DNA of 64,000 nucleotides from a virus: IMG/VR virus record IMGVR_UViG_3300045988_137032, positions 32,001-96,000 of that record. One strand, 5' to 3'. Below the pieces are notes generated by a model. The model was given only the letters and a program-made list of their open reading frames with translations, was not told where the DNA came from and made no database searches. Below, piece after piece: positions 2,444 to 60,527 of this stretch (the first letter of the stretch is position 1; each line of letters opens with the position of its first letter). A program made the position numbers and the translations under genes.

Positions 2444-4561
2444 ATGAAAGGACTGATCTTAATGATTCGATTAAATGAAGCTTCTCTTGAGAGAAGTGAT
2501 TTTATCAAGTTATGGAAAGATGAAATGACTCTCAATATGACCCGTATGAATCCGGAATGGGATCATGATGATATTGAGAAGGTTTTGGATAAAATGCTTC
2601 TGGAACAAATGATGATTCCGGAAGTAGAGCTAGATAATAACTATACAGGCGAGCATAAAGATGCTTCGTCATTGAGTGTTTTGGATTGGGTATTAAAGCG
2701 GAAACCAATTGTCGCTGGTAATGCCACATTTTATAAGAATCAATTGGAGGCTATTAACCCGATTGCAGACATGGTTAATGGCTTCCTTATTGAGCGTAAA
2801 GCTGTGAAAAAGAAGATGTTCCAAATTGAGGATGATCAATCCGATGAGTATAAAGATTTGGATCGTCTTCAGGGTAACGTGAAGCGTCTGGCAAACTCTT
2901 ACTATGGCGCTTCTGGTATGCCAAAGGCAGCATTCTATTCCAGATGGTCTGGCCCTGCAACAACAGGTACAGCACAGTCTGTTATTTCCACTACGGAAAC
3001 TTTGTTTGAAGGTTATCTCGTTGATAATTACAAGTTCGTTGATGATAATGAATGCTATCATTTTATCAATGAGATTCTTAAGCAAGACTATAAGATTCCG
3101 AAGTGGGTTAAACGGGTATCTGAAGGTGAGTTGGTTGAAAGACTCGTTGGAATGTTTTATGAAGATACCTATGTAACTAACTGGGGAGTTGCTGTAGCAG
3201 ATATGGTTCATAATCTTAGTGAAGATGATAGAACCAGAATCTATTACAAGAATAACTTCCTTGAATTTACGAGAGTACATGAAAAGGTTCTTGATCTGTA
3301 TGACGATCTTTTTGCAGCAGTTAAGAATCTTCCCTATGCAGAAACTTATGATGAAATTCCTGATGAATTCAAACCGATGTTCACGAAGGGTAAAGATCAT
3401 GATAAGGTAAAAGCATACAATGAATTCGTGAATACAGAATATTTCTTGAATCCGAATTCTCCTCCTGATTCTGTCCATGGAATTCTGGATGAATTGAAAG
3501 ATCTCTATATGAAATTCGTTTATATTCCGTTTATGTCCATTGACAGAATTCACAGACTGAAATACTTCATGCGGAAAACTGTTTGCATCGTTGATACAGA
3601 TTCTAATATTCTGAATATTGATGCTTGGGTAGATTTCTGTAATGAGTATATCCTTAAGAATTCTTCTTATGGTAGAAGTGCAGAGAATAATAAGTTCATT
3701 TGTGTTAATACTCTGACTTATTATATCACTGCTGCTGTCCAGCATACTCTGAATGAGTATGGACTTCATTCTTATATTCCGGATGATTATCGTCCTATTT
3801 TCAATATGAAGAATGAGTTCTACTTCCAGAAGCTGGTTGTTGGTAAGAAGAAAAAGCGTTATATCTCTGCAATTAAACTGCGTGAGGGTAACATGTTCCA
3901 TCCCTATAAACCTGACGTTAAAGGTTTCGATTATATGAAAGCTGGTACAGCAGAACTTGCTAAGGGCCGCTTTGATATGATCGTAAAGAAATATGTCCTT
4001 GAGTCTGAGGTTCCGGATGTATCGGCTATCTTGAGTGAACTTGCAGCGTTTGAGAATGATATTCGTGATTCTCTCCGTAGAGGTGAACTTACATATCTTT
4101 CTCTTGCATCTGCAAAAGATAAAGAAGCATATGCAAATCCGTATTCTCAGCAAGCATTCCGTGGAGCAATTGCATGGAACGCATTGTATCCTGCGGATGC
4201 AATTGAGTATCCGTCTAAGGTCAGTATTCTGAAGCTTACTACGTTTACAGAGAATGACTTGAAGGATTTGAATAAAACCTATCCTGAAGTATACGATTGT
4301 CTCATGAAGAATGTATTCCATTCTCCTGATAGAGAAATTGCAAAGAAGGGATTGCAAGTTCTTGCTATTCCTTCTGGTCATACCATTCCTGAATGGTGTC
4401 AGCCATTTATTGATGTCCAGACTGTTATCGGCAACATCATGGCTCCGTTTAAGGGAGTTCTTGATATCTTTGGTATCAATAATAGTACGGTTGGTAAGAC
4501 TTATAGTGCAGCTTCCGTAAATCGTAAAACTTCGAAGTTCTCTAATATAGTTAGATTCTAA
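2444..4561 (+). CDS. family-B DNA polymerase, polymerase-domain fragment (fingers/palm/thumb only)
   Basis: Motif B KRLANSYYGASG (KxxxNSxYG), motif C CIVDTDSNIL (DTDS) and KKKKRY (KKRY). No exonuclease motifs and no motif A (DxxSLYPS) in the 150 aa before motif B. Alternative start ATG 2462 has better SD spacing. Confidence 0.85.
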   Translation: MKGLILMIRLNEASLERSDFIKLWKDEMTLNMTRMNPEWDHDDIEKVLDKMLLEQMMIPEVELDNNYTGEHKDASSLSVLDWVLKRKPIVAGNATFYKNQLEAINPIADMVNGFLIERKAVKKKMFQIEDDQSDEYKDLDRLQGNVKRLANSYYGASGMPKAAFYSRWSGPATTGTAQSVISTTETLFEGYLVDNYKFVDDNECYHFINEILKQDYKIPKWVKRVSEGELVERLVGMFYEDTYVTNWGVAVADMVHNLSEDDRTRIYYKNNFLEFTRVHEKVLDLYDDLFAAVKNLPYAETYDEIPDEFKPMFTKGKDHDKVKAYNEFVNTEYFLNPNSPPDSVHGILDELKDLYMKFVYIPFMSIDRIHRLKYFMRKTVCIVDTDSNILNIDAWVDFCNEYILKNSSYGRSAENNKFICVNTLTYYITAAVQHTLNEYGLHSYIPDDYRPIFNMKNEFYFQKLVVGKKKKRYISAIKLREGNMFHPYKPDVKGFDYMKAGTAELAKGRFDMIVKKYVLESEVPDVSAILSELAAFENDIRDSLRRGELTYLSLASAKDKEAYANPYSQQAFRGAIAWNALYPADAIEYPSKVSILKLTTFTENDLKDLNKTYPEVYDCLMKNVFHSPDREIAKKGLQVLAIPSGHTIPEWCQPFIDVQTVIGNIMAPFKGVLDIFGINNSTVGKTYSAASVNRKTSKFSNIVRF

Positions 4562-4607
4562 TGATAACTATTAGCTATTTTATATAAAAAGAAAGGATTG
4601 GCACAAT

Positions 4608-5360
4608 ATGAGCGATTATGGTTACACCCCGAATGATATTTCTTATGAGGAGTTTCTTTCGGAAGCTCCTCTGGATTTAATCAAGGAAAGCATCAGAACC
4701 CAATTCTCAGATCCAATCGATTATAATAAAAAGGACTATATCGCATCCTTCATCAACATGTACAAGTACTCTGAGGAGAAAGCAAGTGCATTTGAAGATG
4801 AGGATACCGATAGCATCCATTATCTCCGTGATAATTTCTATGCATTCATGATGTCCATGTTTTCGAAGAAGCTTGGTGTTGGAATCAATGATTTCGATGA
4901 GATGAGCATGGATGATCAGGATGAAATGATTCATTACGTTTACAGATTCTTCCTGAGTAATTGCAAGAAGAATTTCACAAATATCGTAATGAATCACATC
5001 GAAGAAAATCATGATGTTTATGCATCTATTGCAGATGATGAAGAAGATGTCACTAAGAATTCCATGAAGCGATATGTGGATGACCCTGCTGATGTATATG
5101 TGCTGAGTCATCTTCGTGAAATCATTCAAGAAGCTTTGAATGGCGACATGGATGTTGACGAATTCCTTGATCAGTGTGATAGCACAGAAGATCCTTGTCT
5201 TGAAACTGCTTTCGTCAGAAATAAGTATGAAGACTTTACTCTGACTGGTAATTTCGTTCCTCTGTATTTTGATCTCACTGATTACAAAGACTTCTTAACA
5301 GAAGTTGAGTCTAAAGTACGACATAAAATCCTTAAGAAGTATAATAAAAAGAAGGATTGA
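4608..5360 (+). CDS. hypothetical acidic protein (250 aa)
   Basis: AAAGGA SD 10 nt before the ATG. Follows the polymerase gene after a 46-nt gap. Confidence 0.7.
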   Translation: MSDYGYTPNDISYEEFLSEAPLDLIKESIRTQFSDPIDYNKKDYIASFINMYKYSEEKASAFEDEDTDSIHYLRDNFYAFMMSMFSKKLGVGINDFDEMSMDDQDEMIHYVYRFFLSNCKKNFTNIVMNHIEENHDVYASIADDEEDVTKNSMKRYVDDPADVYVLSHLREIIQEALNGDMDVDEFLDQCDSTEDPCLETAFVRNKYEDFTLTGNFVPLYFDLTDYKDFLTEVESKVRHKILKKYNKKKD

Positions 5361-10212: not shown

Positions 10213-11907
10213 ATGAACACAGACAGCAAGACAACTGAAACGGCCGTAAGTGCGACTTCGTTACGACCGAAGTTCCCGAATATCCCTCGGTCTGAGTGGA
10301 CCGAGAAAACCGCACCCAAAGCACCAATTACTCAGTGGAAACCTAAGCGCGATAAAAGTGATCTTTATTCGGAAGCAGATGGAAGAGTATTTATCTTCCA
10401 TTTTGAGAAGTTTGACTTACCTGATAAGGTAGCAACTTACGATCGATTCTTCGTGAATAAGTTGTCTTACGGTAGTCAGCTTCCTACAATCTGCTCCTAT
10501 ATCAATTACTTCATTAAGAAGTATGATTTGGATCATGAAATTCCCACAGCATATCTGAAGCTCAAGTTCTCCATTGATAAACTGGTCGATGAGGATACTG
10601 GACTGAACGTCTATAATGAAGAAACGATGGATCAGTTCATTAGTCTCATCTATGAAGTGATGTTCACCCCGACAGTTGTTGACAAGATCAAACGATTGGT
10701 TGAAGATAACTATCTGGATGACATTGAGTCTACGGATAATTCTCGTTATCTGAAAGATTCTAAGAAGCATCTTGAAAGTCTTGAATTCAGAAATATCCAT
10801 GTGAAAGTGATGCTTCGCATTAGTTTTGGTATGAAGCTGATTGCCCCCGTTATGTGCCACTTCTTCTACGTGAACCATATGAAACCGGAGCGAGACAGTG
10901 ACGTTATCTATAACTTCTATGCCAGACTCTTTGATCTGTTCAATGAGCCGGGTATGAGCCTTTATAACAAACTCTTCGTTTATGTCAAAGCGAAGGTTCT
11001 GGAGAATAAGTCTCATAATACCGTGATCTTTGAGCAGCGTGAGATTCTCGGCTGGGATGGTTATGTCGTCATTAATTCCTTCCTTCGTAAGGTTCTGATC
11101 AGTGAAACGATCATCAAGTATACGTTCAGTGAGCACTATAGCCCGAAGACGAAGAAATACCAAGAGAATATCATCGGCTTCAACAAAACGATTATCAAAT
11201 ATCAGTTGATGTACTTCTTGAAAGAGCAGTATGCGAAGAACATGACTGAAGTAACATCCACAAAGAACACCGACGGATTGTCCGGACAGGATAAGATGGA
11301 GATGAACCTCACCAAGATTGATGAGGGCATGGTTGTTATTGCGGATGCAAACATCTCTTCCGAAATCGAACGCTTGAGAAGAGAAATCGATTTCGACATC
11401 ACTGATGATGAAATCAATTATTATGTGAAGAACCATAGTCCGTCTCCTCTGCAAGTCCAGATGGTATATTCCTACTGGGCAAAGGACTTTGGTGTCTATC
11501 GCAATATGAGCCTCGCAAGTCGTGTCGAATACACGATTCTTATGCTTATCCTGAAAAAGCGTTTGCTTATCAATGCTGGTAATTCTGAGGATAGTGTCAC
11601 AAATACTTGTGCACTGGCTTACATCATTTCCGGTAACGTGAATGGTACCGTGAATACCAGACAGATTCGCAAGAGTCGCTTTGTCGATAAGGTTGAGAAG
11701 AGTGCTCTCTACAAAGATTTGTGTGAGAATAAGTATAGTCAGCTCATTTCGATTCGTCCTGAATACATCAAAGAAATCCTCTCGAAGTTTATCAATACTT
11801 CCTTTACCTATGTGGTTTACGAAGCTCCTGATCTGTTAGGTCAACCTATTGAATACGATGAGGATACCATTTCTGATGAGCTGCTCTTCTTCCTCAAGAG
11901 CATTTAA
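10213..11907 (+). CDS. hypothetical protein (564 aa)
   Basis: The ORF starts at 10150, but ATG 10213 follows GAGAGGAGAG SD. Confidence 0.7.
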   Translation: MNTDSKTTETAVSATSLRPKFPNIPRSEWTEKTAPKAPITQWKPKRDKSDLYSEADGRVFIFHFEKFDLPDKVATYDRFFVNKLSYGSQLPTICSYINYFIKKYDLDHEIPTAYLKLKFSIDKLVDEDTGLNVYNEETMDQFISLIYEVMFTPTVVDKIKRLVEDNYLDDIESTDNSRYLKDSKKHLESLEFRNIHVKVMLRISFGMKLIAPVMCHFFYVNHMKPERDSDVIYNFYARLFDLFNEPGMSLYNKLFVYVKAKVLENKSHNTVIFEQREILGWDGYVVINSFLRKVLISETIIKYTFSEHYSPKTKKYQENIIGFNKTIIKYQLMYFLKEQYAKNMTEVTSTKNTDGLSGQDKMEMNLTKIDEGMVVIADANISSEIERLRREIDFDITDDEINYYVKNHSPSPLQVQMVYSYWAKDFGVYRNMSLASRVEYTILMLILKKRLLINAGNSEDSVTNTCALAYIISGNVNGTVNTRQIRKSRFVDKVEKSALYKDLCENKYSQLISIRPEYIKEILSKFINTSFTYVVYEAPDLLGQPIEYDEDTISDELLFFLKSI

Positions 11908-11915
11908 CTAATATT

Positions 11916-11957
11916 ATCCACCAACTGTATTATCTCTTGCAGTTGGTGGATTTCTTC
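11916..11957 (+). terminator. rho-independent terminator
   Basis: Stem ATCCACCAACTG (11916-11927) / CAGTTGGTGGAT (11940-11951), then TTCTTC. Confidence 0.7.
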
Positions 11958-12037
11958 ATATAAGTTATACTAAGTTGCCCAAACTTGTATTGAATTATAT
12001 ATCATATATTTGAATAGATAGAAAGGTGAGTGATAGA

Positions 12038-12415
12038 ATGGTCAATCTATTCATACACGGATGGGAGATTGTGCCTATCTGGTTTAAGATAATCTTTATC
12101 TTTGCAGTGCTTAATGCCGCTTGGGACATATGCATGAAAGTCATAACTCGTATTGTCACATTTTATTTTGCAAAAGAACTCGTAAAAGAGAAACTAAAAT
12201 TTCTCATATCAAAACGAGATTTGATTCGAGACTGTATGATAGAGTACGGCTGGAAATGCTATGAAAAAGACAAAGTACGGTATTATGAATCAGGTCTGGT
12301 TAAAATGACGGAGATGGAACTTTTTAAAAATATCATGCGCAATAATTGTGCAAGTGATCCTTCGGAAGTCACGACAAGCATTGATTCCGCTAATAACAGC
12401 ACGAATACAAAATGA
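12038..12415 (+). CDS. small membrane-anchored protein, paralogue family member 1
   Basis: N-terminal hydrophobic segment, then a YGWKCYEKD.. module shared with the next genes. Confidence 0.6.
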   Translation: MVNLFIHGWEIVPIWFKIIFIFAVLNAAWDICMKVITRIVTFYFAKELVKEKLKFLISKRDLIRDCMIEYGWKCYEKDKVRYYESGLVKMTEMELFKNIMRNNCASDPSEVTTSIDSANNSTNTK

Positions 12416-12427
12416 AAGGATAATTGA

Positions 12428-12787
12428 ATGGAAATATATGGAAGAGTTTTCTGGTTTTTATTAGGCTCCTCGTTATTCATTTGCAGTCTAATGCTTCTTT
12501 TCATTGATCCTGTCACGGACTTCATGTGGAAGATTCACTGTATCAGGGTGGATAATAAACTGGAACGTCTTGTTCGTGACTACATGAAAGAATGTGGATG
12601 GAGGATCGTATGGGATAAGAGCATTCGTGGTTGGATGTGTATCAGTAGAAGTGGTTTTAGAATCACTTTGAAGAATGCATGTAACTACGTAAAAGATCAC
12701 AACGATGAAAACGATCCATATTATTGGGCAAACGATTTTATGGTGTGGAATTATGTGGACGAAAGGGATACTAAAAAATGGACTTAG
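12428..12787 (+). CDS. small membrane-anchored protein, paralogue family member 2
   Basis: N-terminal TM segment. CGWRIVWDKSIRGWMCISRSGFRITLKNACNYVKDH aligns with member 3. Confidence 0.65.
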   Translation: MEIYGRVFWFLLGSSLFICSLMLLFIDPVTDFMWKIHCIRVDNKLERLVRDYMKECGWRIVWDKSIRGWMCISRSGFRITLKNACNYVKDHNDENDPYYWANDFMVWNYVDERDTKKWT

Positions 12788-13185
12788 TATTGAAATGGAT
12801 CCTGGTTATCTATTTCGCGGTTCTCTTAATCATTATCACTGGATTCATATTTTCGTATCAGATATGTTTCGTAGTGATTTACATAGCAACCTTTATCAAG
12901 GATAAGGAGTTTAGAGACGCTGTAATATCCCTCCGTTTTAATTATTTTAAGCGGAGTATTCTTCTGTATAAATTTCATCGTCATGTACGGAGTTATTTAA
13001 AGCATGATGGATGGAAAATCGTTTGGGATATAAAAACCTTCAGGAGAGTATGCATCAGTAGAAGAGGATTTCGTATCCCTTTGAAAGATGCGTATTCATA
13101 TATCAGGAAACATGGAGATCCAATGGATATATTCTATTGGGGTGATGTGTTTGATCTGTGGAATCGTACGAGTGAGGAGATGTAG
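12778..13185 (+). CDS. small membrane-anchored protein, paralogue family member 3
   Basis: N-terminal TM segment. DGWKIVWDIKTFRRVCISRRGFRIPLKDAYSYIRKH. The start overlaps the previous stop. Confidence 0.65.
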   Translation: MDLVLKWILVIYFAVLLIIITGFIFSYQICFVVIYIATFIKDKEFRDAVISLRFNYFKRSILLYKFHRHVRSYLKHDGWKIVWDIKTFRRVCISRRGFRIPLKDAYSYIRKHGDPMDIFYWGDVFDLWNRTSEEM

Positions 13186-20671: not shown

Positions 20672-20699
20672 ACATAATCAGTCCTTTCTATATATTTTT

Positions 20700-21400
20700 A
20701 CATACACCATTACACTAACGTAATCTCGAAAGTAGAATGGTAGTCAGTGTTTTTAATAATTACTACCACTACATAGAGATAGCAAGGTTTTAATTCGGTG
20801 TAATCCCGAAGCGATGTCGTGATGACATTCGTAACGCTTAATTCCTTCCATTCATAGTCCAAGCCTGGGCACCGACGCGCCTATTCGTAGCTGGATTAGA
20901 CTACCGTTTTTAGTAGCGGGCTAGGTGATAAATAATAGGGTGTTTGGAAGGACGTGTGGTTTAAACGAATTAAACTGAGTTGCTAGTAATCTCCATACAT
21001 GGAAAACTAGCAGACAGGTAAATGCGGACCTGTCGGAGAGTAGACTTGTATACGCATCCTTGGAGGTGTAGAGGATCGCCGTTGTTTTCGGGATCAGTAA
21101 ACGATATCAGAAACCGCTTGTCAGGATATCCTAGCGCCTAACGGCGTTTTGATTTTCTGGCGAATAACAGCGTGTTATTGGTATTGCAGGTTAACCCTCC
21201 CTCTCTAGCGATTACTGTAAATGATTTCATTTGCAGTTGTTCTATATTTGCTGTTTGAAGACGAAAGTCCCCTTCAGATGGCCATAATGCCTTTCAAAAT
21301 TGATTGATAATCACCACATGTACGGCTTCGTTGTTTCACCGTATATGTGGTGATTATCAATACCCTATACGACATGTAGTTAATTTTACCCACGGAAATA
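20700..21400 (+). ncRNA. candidate large structured ncRNA A (family unassigned)
   Basis: No ORF of 60 aa or more on either strand. G+C visibly higher than normal intergenic DNA. Many nested helices, and the mismatches in two stems are G-U only on the + strand. Boundaries are approximate. Confidence 0.5.
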
Positions 21401-21424
21401 AATAACGGAAAGGGTGTTTTAACT

Positions 21425-22141
21425 ATGCCGAAATATAAACTTCTTCCTGTGCAAGGAAAAACTACAGTAAATGCTCCTCCTCTTTATATTGTGGTTGCAC
21501 AGGAAGATTTCATTGCTATGGATGGAACTTTTATTCCCTGTGGCACTGAAGGAGGATTTGTAGAAAGCGAAGCTTGCATGCCAAATACATCCAAAGATAA
21601 AAGCTGGATTTATGCTACCAATGGTTATGTAGTTGACAATGCAAAAATTACGAATAGCGTTATCAAGAATGGGTACATATCCGGAAATGCTACCATTGAG
21701 AATTCTATCATCGATAAGAAATGCAATATCATGGAGAATGCAGTTGTAGTTGATTCTACAGTGGATAGTAGTGTGATTGGTGTATGCTCAAGAATCGTTC
21801 GTTGTAAATTGATTGGTGATAATTGCATCAATCTTTATGAGAATACTCATATCTTAGATTCTACGATTGAGGATTCTTCTATTTCTGGAAATATTCTTAT
21901 CTGGAATTCTAATATCGCAAATTGTGCTATTCATAACACTGAATCGAAATGTAGGTCTTATGAATCCACTCATTTATCCGATAAGACGGAATTGGATTCT
22001 CTCAATTACAATTATCGTGATAAGCATGGTACTGGTGAGTTTGCTAAACGTAATAGACAACTCATGAAAGAATTGGAGCGTGCTTTTGCATCAGGAGAAC
22101 TCCGTGCTGGCTACGATATCCATCAGAAATCTGATAAGTAA
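21425..22141 (+). CDS. beta-helix repeat protein (238 aa), function unknown
   Basis: Imperfect repeats of about 17-20 aa (NSVIKNGYISGNATIENSIIDKKCNIMENAVVVDSTVDSSVIG..) typical of a parallel beta-helix. AAAGGG SD. Confidence 0.7.
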   Translation: MPKYKLLPVQGKTTVNAPPLYIVVAQEDFIAMDGTFIPCGTEGGFVESEACMPNTSKDKSWIYATNGYVVDNAKITNSVIKNGYISGNATIENSIIDKKCNIMENAVVVDSTVDSSVIGVCSRIVRCKLIGDNCINLYENTHILDSTIEDSSISGNILIWNSNIANCAIHNTESKCRSYESTHLSDKTELDSLNYNYRDKHGTGEFAKRNRQLMKELERAFASGELRAGYDIHQKSDK

Positions 22142-22149
22142 ATTAATAT

Positions 22150-23000
22150 TTTAATATCTTCTAAACTATATGGTATGAGAACATGATTAAGAAGATCTTC
22201 TTCTCATGCAATTTGCTTAACGATTGGTGCCATTTGTTAAGCAAGACAGTTTAGAATTATTACCTTTTCCTCTCACGAATTTCTCATCGTAATAATTCTA
22301 AATTTAGGGTTGAGAGCCCGAAGTTCAAAGCCGTACAACTCCCATTCCTACGGCCGGTCCAGTAAGATTCTGGAGATCAAGAACGAAAGTAACTTTAGCA
22401 TGATTTATGGATAGACAGAAGTTACCAATTGCGATATCAGCCGATATCTGCTTGTCATTTGAATGTTACTGCATCATATGGTAATTGGTAGCTCTCCACA
22501 TCTGTCTTACATTCATATGCACATGCTCCACTCTTTTGTAACGTACTTTGCTAGTATTGATCAACGTTCACAGCTCTCACAATAAATCGCGTACGGTTTG
22601 ACGTTGGCCAGTCTCTCCTAAGTCGTGTAAGAGATGCTGTATGCAATTGCATTATAAGGAGTTCGATGATATTGAATCTGTAGCGATTCTATCTAGTCAG
22701 GTAAAATTCCTGTGCTTCAAGCTGTTAAGAAGTTTACCATCCTTTTGGTGATACGCTGAACCACTGTCGCGTATACGCCCCAATAAGTTTATATATAGAG
22801 TATAGGATTATGAACTTTGGGTATACTCAGTCCAGAGTGGGTCATTACCGCTGGTTCCTAGATATACTCGATAGACATACCCCGTCGACTATTCTATGTA
22901 TAACAATAAGAGTGATGAAAACGACACCTTGAAGTAACTCCATTTTAGACTATTCAAATACACAGTAGATGTGAGATAAAACATCTACTGTGTATTTTTA
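22150..23000 (+). ncRNA. candidate large structured ncRNA B (family unassigned)
   Basis: ORF-free. Long-range and local helices, with a G-U wobble only on the + strand. Ends in a strong + strand terminator. The 5' boundary is uncertain. Confidence 0.5.
22957..23000 (+). terminator. rho-independent terminator
   Basis: A 16-bp stem AATACACAGTAGATGT (22957-22972) / ACATCTACTGTGTATT (22981-22996), then TTTT. Confidence 0.85.
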
Positions 23001-23053
23001 CTATTATAACAAATAGGTATGAATGCGTATGGATCTTTTATGATTATATATGC

Positions 23054-23147
23054 CCTCCTGTAGTGTAATGGTAACACGCCGGATTTATGACCCGGATAAG
23101 TTCTAGATTGGAGCAAGATGGGGGTTGGAGTCCCTCCAGGAGGACCA
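23054..23147 (+). tRNA. atypical tRNA-like gene (anticodon position reads UAU; 24-nt variable region)
   Basis: Acceptor CCTCCTG/CAGGAGG + A + CCA. D arm GTGT-AATGGTA-ACAC. Anticodon arm CCGGA-TTTATGA-CCCGG with an A31-C39 mismatch. Variable hairpin GTTCT-AGATT-GGAGC. T arm GGGGG-TTGGAGT-CCCTC lacks C56. Confidence 0.55.
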
Positions 23148-23244
23148 CTTTGTTTTCCATATAAATAGATCCTTTCAAACACATTCATTTGACTGATACA
23201 GAGACTGATGACTATTATGGTTGTCAGTCTCTGTATCATCTAGC

Positions 23245-23263
23245 CCTAAAAACAGTATTCTAA
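23245..23263 (+). promoter_or_regulatory. promoter-like motif class L
   Basis: CCTAAAAACAGTATTCTAA, about 60 nt before ATG 23323. Confidence 0.5.
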
Positions 23264-23322
23264 TCAGTTAGGTTTTTCTCTTGTATTCTTAAATACTAAA
23301 GAAAGGGGAGATAATATAAGTT

Positions 23323-29464: not shown

Positions 29465-29484
29465 CTAGAAAACAATAAGGTAAG
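29465..29484 (+). promoter_or_regulatory. promoter-like motif class L
   Basis: CTAGAAAACAATAAGGTAAG, about 50 nt before ATG 29535. Confidence 0.5.
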
Positions 29485-57020: not shown

Positions 57021-57136
57021 CTATTTTATCCGGAGGGGGTGGATAATGAAATTCATTGAGTTTCAATATCCCGGTGACAGTATCCTAACCGATGGTTTTG
57101 AAAGATAAACCTTATAAGAAAGGAATGGTCCTTATT

Positions 57137-60100
57137 ATGAAATCAGTTAAGAAACGTGATAACCGGATAGTGGAATTCGACCGGGAAAAAATCGTCTCTG
57201 CAATCCAGAGAGCATTTATTGAGGTCGATGGTACACTATCCGATTCAGCCAAAAGTATCGCGGAATCTACTGCGACAAAAGTTGCCCTGATCCCTGAAGA
57301 TATGTCTGTGGAACAGATTCAGGATCAGGTGATCTATTCCCTTATGGATACTTCTCGGAAAGATGTTGCAAAAGCATATACGGAGTATCGGTTCAAACAC
57401 AATTTAGCTCGGGATTTCCGTAACACCACCGATCAAGCTATCATGGACCTGCTTGATCACAAGAACGAAGAAATCAATGGTGAGAATTCCAATAAGGATC
57501 CCGAGATCGTTTCTGTTCAGCGTGATTATATCGCTGGTATTACTTCTAAGGATATTACAAAGCGTATTCTGCTTGACGAAGATATTGTGAAAGCCGATGA
57601 AGCTGGTATTATCCATTTCCATGACTCTGACTATTTTGCACAGAATGTGCTTACCAACTGCTCTCTGTGCAATCTGGAGGATATGCTCCAGAATGGTACT
57701 GTCATTAACGGTACAAAAATCGATAAGCCTCACCGTTTTATCACAGCGTCGACTATTGCAACTCAGATCATCACTGCTGTGACATCTTCTCAGTATGGTG
57801 GTATCTCTATTACTCTGACACATCTTGCACCGTTTGTTCGTGAGTCCTATAATCGGTATCTTAGTAAATACCGTAGCTGGGGATTTGATGAGAAGAAAGC
57901 TGCCAAGTATGCTGATCTGGATACTCGTAAGGAAGTTGAAGACGGCTGCCAGACTTTCATCTATCAGGTGAATTCCATGTCTACAACCAATGGCCAGGCT
58001 CCGTTCCTGACTGTCTTTATGTATATCAATGAGACAGAGGAATATCGTGATGAACTGGTAATGCTGATTGAAGAATTCCTCCGTCAGCGTATTCAGGGTA
58101 TGAAGAATGAGCAGGGTGTATGGATTACTCCTGCATTCCCGAAACTCATTTATGTCCTCGATGAGGATAATATTAAGCCTGGCACAAAGTACTGGGACAC
58201 TACAGTTTTAGCTGCTCAATGTACTGCCAAACGCATGGTTCCTGACTATATTTCAGCAAAAGTGATGAAACAGCTGAAGGGGGACGTGTGGCCGTGCATG
58301 GGTTGCTTTGATGCAAAAGAGGTTGTTTCATATCAATTAAATAACGAGTCTCACGTGAGTACTTTTGAGGAAATGTGGAATTCGTTTAAAGGTAGATTTG
58401 ATATGGTATCTCAGGAAACTGGTGTTGCTGGTGATACCTACATGAATCTTACTGGAGTTAAGATTTACGACCATGTGAATGGATGGACTGATTGCAAGCG
58501 TCTTATCCATAATCATCACGATAAGATGCTTCGTGTCGTCTTTACGAATGGTCGTGTAGTTGAAGTCACTCCGAATCATCCGTTCACAGTTGAAACGAAT
58601 TCCAAGACTGAATCTATCGTCTATGCTGAGAAACTCAATGTCGGTGATACGATCAAGATCGATAGTGAGTTCAAGGCATTCAACGAAGATGATCTGAAGG
58701 TATATAATTCTCCGAATGATGAGAAGCCTGCTATTGCAGCAGAGAATTTCGTTATGAATAAGATTCGTGATGATGAACTTCTCACTCTGGATCTTATCTT
58801 CAATTACAAGAAGGATACTCGCCGTGAATTCCTGTATGGTCTGATTCAGACTATGCGTGACGATCTTGAAGTCGTTAAGAAGGAAGAGACTGATCCTCGC
58901 GATGAGAATCGTTCCTTCATCGATGACTATAATAAGACAAAGGTCATCGGCATTCATTATCTTACTAAGGATCGCGCACTGAAGATCATGATGCTTGCTC
59001 AAAGCGTTGATGTTCATGCGGATATTCATGTGGAAGATGAAGAGTCTCGTCATTATCAGGATCTATATAAAGTACAGATTGCTCCTACATACGAACTCAT
59101 TAAGCTCTGCACGAATGATCAGGATTCCTTCTGGGGAGTCTTCAGTGATTCCGTTATGAATGAACTGGAGAACTCTGAGCTGTTCCATCAGGAATATGCT
59201 TGTGTGGAATCCGTCACTCGTCGTTACGAACTTCGTGAAAGCTATGATGTTACGACTGCCTCTGAGCACTTCAGTGCATCCGGCATTTATACTCATAACT
59301 GCCGTAGTTTCCTTACTCCGTATAAAGATCCGAAAACTGGTAAGGGAAAGTATTATGGTAGATTCAACTGTGGTGTCGTAACCATTTCTCTCCCTGATCT
59401 TGCTTTCTCTTCCGGTGGAGACTACGATAAATTCTGGCAGCTCTTTGAAGAGCGTACTGAGCTTTGCCATAGAGCATTGCGTGCACGTATTGATCGTATC
59501 AAGGATACATCTGTTAACGTCGCTCCCATTCTTTGGCGTCATGGCGCATTTGCACGACTTCCTATGGATGCTAAGATCGGCGATATCATGTTTAATGGAT
59601 ATTCTACTATCTCACTTGGATATGCAGGTCTGTATGAGTGTGTCAAGTATATGACTGGTCATTCTCATATGGATAAGGGTATTGGTACTGAATTTGGCCT
59701 TAAGGTCATGCAAGCTTTGAATGATAAGTGTAATCAGTGGAAGACAGCAGAGCATATCGATTATTCTCTGTATGGTACCCCGATTGAGAACACCACTTAC
59801 AAGTTTGCCCGTTGCCTTAAGAAGCGTTTTGGTAATGATATCTTCGTCAAGCTTGATGGTAAAGACCGTGATTACATCACCAATAGCTACCACACAGCAG
59901 TCTTTGAAAAGATCAATCCGTTTGATAAGCTGATTCAGGAAGCTGAATTCCAGAAGCTTTCTCCGGGCGGCGCTATCAGTTATATTGAATGCTCTGATTT
60001 GACTCATAATATTCCTGCTGTTCTTCAGGTCATGCAGTGTATTTATGATAACATCATGTATGCTGAGCTCAATATCAAGTCTGATTATTGCATGTGCTGT

Positions 60101-60215
60101 GGATTTGATGGGGAGATCAAAGTTATTGACGACGGTGGTAAGTTGGTTTGGGAATGCCCGAACTGCGGCAACCGTGATCAGCATAAAATGAGCGTCGCTC
60201 GACGCACTTGTGGAT
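57137..60215 (+). CDS. nrdD: anaerobic ribonucleoside-triphosphate reductase NrdD, exon 1 (contains an in-frame intein)
   Basis: ATP-cone KKRDNRIVEFDREKI. C-terminal Zn ribbon CMCCG..CPNCG. The glycyl-radical motif is cut after RRTCG. The track ORF runs to 60232 (LNYSI*), reading into the intron. Confidence 0.85.
58304..59299 (+). mobile_element. intein (332 aa) in NrdD
   Basis: Starts with Cys (CFDAKEVV). Block B is GRVVEVTPNHPF (TxxH). Ends ..YDVTTASEHFSASGIYTHN, followed by extein Cys. Removal gives VWPCMG-CRSFLTPY (conserved NrdD MGCRSFL). A degenerate LAGLIDADG-like FLYGLIQTMRDD lies in the middle. Confidence 0.85.
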
Positions 60216-60527
60216 TGAATTATTCAATATAGTCCACGTTAAACCTGTTAAACTGCGGGAAGTTCCTTAGAGCTCTAGGTTACCAAGTATAGTTTGGTGA
60301 CAGCTATATGGCTGATTTTAACAGAATCGGATATGGTAAAAAGACTTAGAGATTGGATAATCATCGCATCGAAACTTCTGCGAGTAGAAATACTCGTATG
60401 GATTTATTCCACTTAGGGAAGGACGTTCAACGACTATAATACGGGCGCGCTACTTAGTGACTTCACTAAGCAAGTATGGTATAGTCTACTCCCGTACTTA
60501 AATATCGGGAAACCGAGGGTACAAAGG
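60216..60527 (+). mobile_element. group I self-splicing intron (312 nt, no ORF) in nrdD
   Basis: P1 is GTGGAT (60210-60215) / GTCCAC (60232-60237), with a U-G wobble at the 5' splice site. P10 is AATAT (60226-60230) / exon-2 ATATT (60528-60532). The terminal G is at 60527. P-like ACTGCGGGAAG is at 60252-60262. R-like GTTCAACGACTATA (60425-60438) pairs with S-like ATAGTC (60481-60486) as P7. Confidence 0.85.

Follow-up and report, generated by a model that had tools for sequence, protein, structure and literature searches.

A large structured RNA of a putative new family encoded beside a tRNA gene in a human-gut jumbo phage

Large ornate RNAs and the jumbo phage locus

To our knowledge, bacterial and phage RNAs longer than 500 nt with an ornate conserved fold are very few, namely rRNAs, group I and group II introns, RNase P RNA, OLE, GOLLD, ROOL and HEARO. 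Each of these classes has led to new biochemistry or, failing that, still poses a major question. Two of them, GOLLD and ROOL, occur in a phage setting beside tRNAs and combine a variable 5′ part with a conserved remainder (PMC5737381; PMC12286853). GOLLD (RF01998) exceeds 800 nt, has many helices and junctions and a less conserved 5′ part, and is found in phages and prophages, often by tRNA genes; its assembly is held by kissing loops, and the RNA pulls down ribosomes (PMC12286853). ROOL (RF03087), with an average length of 581 nt, is likewise large and ornate, contains a variable internal linker and is found close to tRNA islands in phages and prophages; it forms an RNA-only cage where identical sequences of different chains self-pair (PMC5737381; PMC12286853). 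In this line, OLE is an ornate RNA of ~600 nt with many conserved nucleotides, which forms a homodimer via symmetric contacts and functions with protein partners (PMC12286853). Palindromic pairing and kissing loops are documented as intermolecular motifs in GOLLD, ROOL, OLE and HYER (PMC12286853; PMC12990946), and the phi29 pRNA offers a further case of a phage-encoded structural RNA that multimerises by loop-loop pairing (PMC12990946).

Here we describe RNA B, encoded in a viral window, by which we mean the whole stretch of 64,000 nucleotides that was analysed. Among the genes of this window are a tRNA cluster and those for a DNA polymerase, a GroEL-like protein, an anaerobic ribonucleotide reductase and several split beta-like subunits of RNA polymerase, and this gene content places the source genome, a human-gut jumbo phage, among the phiKZ-like phages with their own multisubunit RNA polymerases. 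Human-gut metagenome contigs of 112–264 kb carry exact copies of the 238-aa protein encoded at 21425–22141, just upstream of RNA B. The gene order is RNA polymerase beta, a 288-aa gene, a 156-aa gene on the minus strand, an ORF-free stretch (region A), the 238-aa gene, RNA B, a tRNA and a 1001-aa gene; it is the same in every related contig reaching that far, with a gap of 1.0–1.2 kb between the 238-aa and 1001-aa genes. These two flanking genes are preceded by Shine-Dalgarno-like sequences, which suggests that the host makes use of signals of this kind. As a minor observation elsewhere in the window, the NrdD-like anaerobic ribonucleotide reductase (57092–60232) matches its family in two blocks, residues 16–407 and 734–1041, with ~325 residues between them, a split that suggests an inserted domain or an intein.

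RNA B shares with GOLLD its large size (~800 nt), phage location and tRNA adjacency, since it measures ~825 nt in a jumbo phage genome and a tRNA lies 54 nt downstream. It differs from GOLLD in a layout of two duplicated four-way-junction modules, in its occurrence within a narrow clade of gut jumbo phages and in an oligomeric state that is only hinted at, and from ROOL in its greater length and in that no pseudoknots are established in it. OLE, by contrast, is encoded in the chromosomes of extremophilic Bacillota and acts together with Oap proteins, none of which is encoded near RNA B. The phi29 pRNA differs from it with 174 nt, two mutually complementary loops that are not palindromes, and no sequence or model relation to RNA B.

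Rfam 15 was scanned with the window at the gathering threshold and, at E≤10, with the surrounding 3.3 kb, with the region alone and with four diverged homologues (L008, L009, L013 and L265). These scans, a comparison already proposed in an initial annotation of this DNA, returned only the tRNA and hairpin noise, and no family matched region B or its homologues at E≤10. In particular, no covariance-model match was obtained for GOLLD (window, region alone and the four homologues) or for ROOL in the same scans, and the models of OLE, RNase P RNA, tmRNA, 6S RNA and rRNA likewise went without a match in the window or the homologues. RNA B is set apart from GOLLD and ROOL because it fails their covariance models, the only objective membership test available, and by that test it represents a putative new family within the large ornate phage RNAs of unknown function. 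A survey of titles and abstracts in the literature gave no account of an RNA of this kind in jumbo or huge phages.

The best explanation, to which we assign a probability of about one half, is that the locus encodes a ~825-nt plus-strand non-coding RNA of a new family that is probably a self-associating architectural RNA like GOLLD and ROOL. The latter RNAs are taken as functional models because their size, ornate fold with variable arms, phage origin and tRNA-adjacent position match those of RNA B, which would act as an architectural RNA in the same manner. The existence of another family, unrelated in sequence, phage-borne and adjacent to a tRNA, suggests that phages have evolved large architectural RNAs repeatedly.

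A conserved fold on the plus strand

The initial annotation had proposed a large structured RNA in this region, with no credible ORF in positions 22142–23053. The longest ORF there has 40 aa, and TAA, TAG and TGA are each present in all six frames; therefore stop reassignment cannot open a frame in region B, which rules out a protein gene under an alternative genetic code or stop-codon recoding. Small ORFs in the region showed no conservation across homologues, and gene callers run on related contigs placed no gene between the 238-aa and 1001-aa genes, except for one mobile insertion (in L006). The minus-strand ORF at 22985–23239, already pointed out as overlapping the tRNA, is present with 84 aa and does overlap it.

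Relatives were reached via the upstream 238-aa protein, down to 50% identity, and their contigs were then fetched. Together with contigs from IMG/VR, this yielded 15 distinct homologues of the region B gap, distributed in four clades of human-gut jumbo phages of ~250–262 kb with preserved gene order, whose identity in region B is 52–68% between clades. In IMG/VR, a profile search combined with specific DNA patterns recovered six contigs carrying region B (42–262 kb, five of them of at least 145 kb), and searches of the same resource with single protein queries found no relatives. Among 50,697 GenBank phage records there was neither a DNA match to RNA B nor a tblastn match to the 1001-aa protein, and in GTDB species genomes the 238-aa protein had no relative and the pattern matches were due to chance. 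Moreover, a loose pattern (CTGTATG-N10–30-AGGAGTTCRA) searched in metagenomes and IMG/VR (at least 120 stretches each) gave no true new homologue by nhmmer among the loci fetched. The family thus appears restricted to a narrow clade of phiKZ-like gut jumbo phages with their own multisubunit RNA polymerase, a distribution that tempers its generality.

The sequences of all four clades, when folded separately, adopt the same architecture, whose elements in the window are as follows (all on the plus strand):

22175–22302, plus strand: variable 5′ hairpins S1 (22175–22207), S2 (22213–22244) and S3 (22250–22302), in the minimum-free-energy fold
22311–22579, plus strand: domain I, closed by P1 (22311–17/22573–79) and P2 (22320–25/22563–69) and holding hairpins P3 and P4
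22375–22562, plus strand: inner helices of domain I, P5 (22375–80/22557–62), P6 (22386–90/22545–49), P7 (22397–402/22522–27) and P8 (22406–12/22511–17)
22413–22510, plus strand: P9 variable expansion arm
22528–22544, plus strand: single-stranded joiner CCACUCUUUUGUAACGU between P7 and P6, nearly invariant in clades 1–3
22588–22627, plus strand: P10 hairpin, with an 8-nt apical loop containing the self-complementary UUGGCCAG (22604–22611)
22641–22652, plus strand: P11 hairpin, a perfect 12-nt palindrome, AUGCAAUUGCAU
22658–22941, plus strand: domain II, closed by P15 (22658–63/22936–41) and P16 (22714–21/22928–35) and holding P13 and P14
~22722–22788, plus strand: variable arm of domain II
22789–22903, plus strand: P18–P21 subdomain, whose internal-loop strands CUCA and UAGA are conserved and whose 7-nt apical loop is T-loop-like

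Overall, two nested domains make up the fold; a paralogous four-way-junction module underlies each of them, and expansion arms that differ by clade are added. The homologue alignment is made of invariant blocks and, between them, wholly different stretches where pairing is nevertheless retained. For the helices, each clade was folded separately, the pairs were checked by hand sequence by sequence and then counted on an alignment based on sequence only; this procedure was used instead of an automated search for covarying stacks on a MAFFT alignment, which was too noisy. Across 104 pairs in 17 helices and 15 sequences, 93.7% of 1511 cells are paired, compared with 34–42% when the 3′ partner is slid by 1–3 columns. 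Pairs changed on both sides amount to 44 of the 104 (3–11 in the slid controls), a count to be read in the light of an alignment that holds four deep lineages only, so that a compensatory change shared by many sequences may have arisen just once; even so, in nearly all helices one or more compensatory events occurred independently between clades. The covariation score reached 0.357 versus 0.04–0.09 in the slid controls, and none of 500 column shuffles attained the observed values. The P18–P21 subdomain adds 27 further pairs, 21 of them compensatory, and helices 1–8 of domain I are each 83–100% paired in the 15 sequences, all with compensatory changes. Because of this covariation in homologues, the structure of region B is more than chance.

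With regard to the strand, the plus strand folds at −248 kcal/mol (z = −6.9 against 20 shuffles) and the minus strand gives a z of −3.5 (also 20 shuffles). G·U pairs make up 6.4% of the paired cells and would become A·C mismatches if read on the other strand. Altogether, the G·U pairs, the folding energy and a terminator with its U run, described below, point to the plus strand. The initial proposal of a large structured RNA is in this way borne out as a conserved, heavily paired and non-coding plus-strand element with a covarying terminator beside the tRNA gene, and we are confident that region B is a stand-alone structured non-coding RNA. Its predicted extent is ~825 nt (~22175–23000), with at least 20 conserved helices.

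The specific helices first noticed in this region, 22213–21/22236–44, 22250–62/22290–302, the two-part helix 22414–19/22501–06 plus 22421–30/22483–92, and the enclosed GATATC hairpin (22433–38/22443–48), all lie where they had been placed and take part in the minimum-free-energy fold. They are real helices (S2, S3 and, for the last two, the P9 arm) that turn out to be clade-specific outer arms, and the conserved core, P1–P8 and P10–P21, had been missed. S1 is present in every clade with differing sequence, and S2 and S3 give way to other hairpins in clades 2 and 4 and to one hairpin in L013; inside clade 1, the hairpins S1–S3 show compensatory changes, as do the P9 helices (U-A to C-G in L007). 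In clades 2 and 4, P9 has another sequence and another length, and L013 and L014 lack it; L013 is a natural minimal version of ~640 nt. A pairing partner for the joiner between P7 and P6 was looked for and not found.

The same data bear on the idea that region B works as DNA, whether as a replication origin, a packaging site or a protein-binding region, or is the remnant of a decayed gene or intron. The region does contain palindromes, ATGCAATTGCAT and TGGCCA among them, that would fit such an element, and a homing-endonuclease-like cassette has landed nearby in L006. Compensatory changes, however, preserve pairing between sites up to 260 nt apart and the G·U asymmetry singles out one strand, there is no GC-skew inflection, all three stops are present in each frame and small ORFs are not conserved, so that we regard these origins as highly improbable.

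Duplicated modules and self-complementary loops

A close-up view of the two domains reveals that each of them starts with a module of the same layout:

22317–22383, plus strand: module I, with GAAGUUC (5′ strand of P2), CAAA, the P3 hairpin (22330–54), CGG, the P4 hairpin and the 5′ strand of P5
22358–22374, plus strand: P4 hairpin of module I, with the 7-nt loop UAAGAUU
22655–22723, plus strand: module II, with GGAGUUC (5′ strand of P15), GAU, the P13 hairpin (22668–93), UAGU, the P14 hairpin and the 5′ strand of P16
22698–22712, plus strand: P14 hairpin of module II, with the loop UAAAAUU

The shared order is G(A/G)AGUUC(G/A)A, a hairpin, (C/U)GG or UAGU, a hairpin of 4–5 bp with the loop UAA(G/A)AUU, and a strand of the next long helix. 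In the 64-kb window, read on either strand, the combined motif is found only at 22320 and 22658, with spacings of 42 and 43 nt. Moreover, with a covariance model built from module I alone, module II is recovered full-length and in the homologous position in 7 of 10 genomes (E values from 4e-4 to 0.07 in 270 kb searched); in clade 4, too diverged, this model did not find module II. Module II is accordingly best described, from the motif and the model matches, as a paralogue of module I that arose by internal duplication. P15 never varies across homologues, and because of this its reality rests on homology with the covarying P2. Two candidate tertiary pairings, of the UAAGAUU/UAAAAUU loops with the U-rich 3′ tail and of the pyrimidine loop of P3 with GGAG, were inconsistent among clades when compared by eye and were discarded.

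An invariant AAGGAG lies 4 nt before an AUG at the start of module II (22656–22669; mini-ORF 22656–22684). The peptide that would follow ranges in length from 2 aa (clade 2) through 5 aa (clades 1 and 3) to 13 aa (L022 of clade 4), and the counterpart of this stretch in module I reads CCGAAG. A ribosome-binding site with its mini-ORF is considered unlikely on these grounds: because the peptide is not conserved and the homologous stretch of module I is CCGAAG, the resemblance is probably incidental, a by-product of the module motif.

The large size of RNA B, its multi-helix junctions and its invariant joining nucleotides are features also seen in ribozymes, and tRNA genes lie nearby, so that a large ribozyme processing phage tRNA transcripts or other RNAs, or another catalytic RNA, was considered. 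In clades 1–2 the P3 stem has the form AGCCGUA/UACGG, which resembles the base of group II domain V, and in clades 3–4 it reads AUCGUU and GAUAUA with an open loop of 10–20 nt, thereby lacking the AGC triad of a domain V-like stem. A group II intron or HYER was discarded on this absence and on the lack of a model match, and a group I intron on the lack of an Rfam match and of flanking exons, since a conserved stop closes the gene upstream, and the tRNA and 1001-aa gene that lie downstream are both intact. With neither ribozyme, RNase P, group I nor group II models matching and no flanking exons, a catalytic role seems unlikely.

The conserved nucleotides of the modules can also be read as binding sites. 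RNA B could be a scaffold or decoy for proteins or ribosomes, where each module binds one copy of the same protein, either a phage one, such as the 238-aa beta-helix, or a host one. In favour of it, the invariant motifs G(A/G)AGUUCGA and GUAA(G/A)AUUC in the two modules are kept beyond the needs of pairing, the 238-aa hexapeptide-repeat gene keeps strict synteny with the RNA in every clade, and both the work of OLE with protein partners and the pull-down of ribosomes by GOLLD set precedents (PMC12286853). On the other hand, no RNA-binding domain was found in the proteins neighbouring RNA B, nothing links the RNA to any particular protein, and the 238-aa protein gives a generic left-handed beta-helix signal only, a PDB sequence search with its family returning just generic hexapeptide-repeat domains. 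We hold this reading as doubtful, although somewhat better placed than a ribozyme. The two modules may, in any case, provide two equivalent docking sites for one partner.

The preferred reading, a self-associating architectural RNA, draws on the loops of P10 and P11. The apical loop of P10 appears as UUGGCCAG, UUGGCCGG, CUGGCCAG or UUGGCCAA, all of them self-complementary, and is partly retained in L013 (UUGCCCAG) and L009 (UCAGGCCA, keeping just the GGCC core). The centre of the palindrome is offset from the hairpin axis, therefore it is no simple extension of the stem. As for P11, the variants AUGCAAUUGCAU, AUGUAGCUACAU and AUGCCAUGGCAU are perfect palindromes, tetraloop included. This tetraloop changes from AAUU to AGCU to CAUG with self-complementarity preserved, a property that a tetraloop cannot use within one molecule. 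In L013, P11 is AUGUAGAUACAU, not palindromic, and single substitutions break both the P10 and P11 palindromes of this sequence. One self-complementary 6-mer among ~12 loops is not unlikely by chance, and the loops hint at self-association through P10 and P11 as a lead drawn from a small sample. An apical loop with a 6-nt palindrome drives homodimerisation at the HIV-1 dimerisation initiation site, which has no sequence or model relation to RNA B. By way of its self-complementary P10 and P11 loops, RNA B would probably self-associate, and palindromic loops together with duplicated modules would be in keeping either with an assembly that is symmetric or with a scaffold that offers two equivalent docking sites. 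RNA B is a compact test case, with a clear internal duplication, arms that can be removed (as in the minimal L013) and two mutable candidate self-pairing loops.

Predicted transcript ends, the neighbouring tRNA and region A

The ends of RNA B would be delimited by two conserved elements, and a tRNA gene follows as context outside the RNA:

22164–22176, plus strand: conserved box AACUAUAUGGUAU, of the form AACU-N6-UA, just past the stop codon of the 238-aa gene and abutting the first hairpin
22956–23000, plus strand: intrinsic terminator, a 17-pair stem (22956–22997) followed by a T run
23054–23147, plus strand: tRNA gene with anticodon UAU, a long variable arm and an encoded CCA

The 5′ box, AACUAU-N4-GUAU, is invariant in all clades and unique in the 64-kb window, that is, not a repeated motif. 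Its form is like that of the late promoter of the AR9 nvRNAP, AACA-N6-TA (PMC7598289). Upstream of ORFs, AAC[AT]-N6-TA occurs 17 times versus 8.1±2.8 in shuffles, of which 9 in 2000 reach as high a count. These coincidences are only suggestive of the box as a candidate promoter of the phage RNA polymerase or as the 5′ end of the RNA. Transcription would start at this box to give a stand-alone transcript, and RNA B could equally be processed from the upstream mRNA. A related observation concerns the motif AACAATAAG(G/C)TA, which recurs in intergenic DNA at 29471 and 35166 (plus) and 52969 (minus), twice 61–64 nt upstream of ORF starts (in one case the start of a virion structural gene), and which may represent the late-promoter consensus of this phage.

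At the 3′ end, the strong plus-strand terminator of stem and T run that had been noticed 54 nt before the tRNA was found at 22956–23000. It has the features of an intrinsic (Rho-independent) terminator, namely a stable hairpin with an immediate U run, conserved in relatives: compensatory changes are present at 9 of 13 pairs of the stem, and the homologues whose aligned sequence extends that far retain the UUUUU run.

These flanks are relevant to the proposal that region B is a cis-acting UTR, either as a long structured 3′ UTR with a stabilising or regulatory effect on the 238-aa mRNA or as a leader governing read-through towards the tRNA and the 1001-aa gene. Neither a terminator nor a sigma-70-like plus-strand promoter was found between the 238-aa stop codon and RNA B, and the RNA stands immediately upstream of the tRNA, which would speak for such a role. 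Yet ~825 nt with at least 20 conserved helices go far beyond known bacterial leaders and UTRs, reading the sequence by eye showed no alternative partner for the 5′ arm of the terminator, the tRNA follows a strong terminator, and the 1001-aa gene has an invariant 80-nt leader of its own. A UTR is thus an improbable account, on a par with a ribozyme, and a stand-alone RNA is preferred. The 80-nt leader (23241–23322) is almost 100% identical in all clades, exceeding all nearby coding sequence, and includes both AACAGTATTCTA, which fits the AACA-N6-TA of the AR9 late promoter perfectly, and a CCTAA…TTAGG hairpin. Between the tRNA and this leader there is also a covarying 14-bp hairpin (23195–23237).

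On the other side of the 238-aa gene, region A (20672–21424) is conserved in all clades examined, with 56–69% identity to the window between clades. It contains the invariant blocks AGCAAGGTTTTAATTCGGTG.AATCCCGAAGC, GAGTAAATGCGGAC, ATACGCATCCTT and CCTCTCT and apparently covarying stems, and has no Rfam match. As initially remarked, regions A and B have no similarity in sequence; the question of their co-occurrence in related phages, raised at the same time, is answered by their presence together in every clade examined. One covarying 6-bp candidate for pairing between RNA A and RNA B (20727–32/22533–38) was not significant by clade-label permutation, where the permutations gave 0.39 candidates on average and at least one in 8 of 23. 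That A and B are an unknown pair of giant ornate RNAs, with B forming a symmetric particle via its palindromic loops and modules, either RNA-only or with the intervening protein, is a speculative extension that we consider rather unlikely; if true, the RNA B particle would be a third independently evolved phage RNA nanostructure after GOLLD and ROOL. Having a second large RNA-like region adjoining makes the locus doubly useful. Two further observations concern region A: genes of 160 and 188 aa called on the minus strand in L008, L010 and L011 fall in sequence homologous to ORF-free region A, and these calls are probably spurious; and a conserved long hairpin, GATAATCACCAC…GTGGTGATTATC (21306–21358), lies at its 3′ end, upstream of the 238-aa gene, and every clade with covering sequence has it, with an inner stem that covaries.

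Bacterial tRNA-Ile normally has no long variable arm. The tRNA downstream of RNA B, with its UAU anticodon, has an encoded A-CCA end and a 21-nt variable arm with a covarying stem and the conserved loop AGAUU (CUAGAUUGG or CCAGAUUAG), and its body looks Leu-, Ser- or Tyr-like. The loop AGAUU echoes the UAAGAUU loop of P4. ARAGORN called the L013 copy as CUA (‘Pyl’) in a different register and made no call in L007, L265 and four clade-4 loci; the aligned tRNA sequences of L007, L008 and L009 retain acceptor- and T-arm-like pairing. In L006, a cassette (11640–12815) cuts the tRNA right after the anticodon (…GGATTTAT|TTG…). Inside the cassette are a further complete tRNA, of the L007 type, and a gene of 266 aa; the latter matches an HTH weakly (Pfam E=0.004) and has the motif DLGYKG…GNCRF, which we read as homing-endonuclease-like. 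A related gene of 266–268 aa lies within the tRNA cluster in some strains (L002, L004 and L006, at ~4400–5205), and the cassette looks like a mobile element that homes to tRNA genes.
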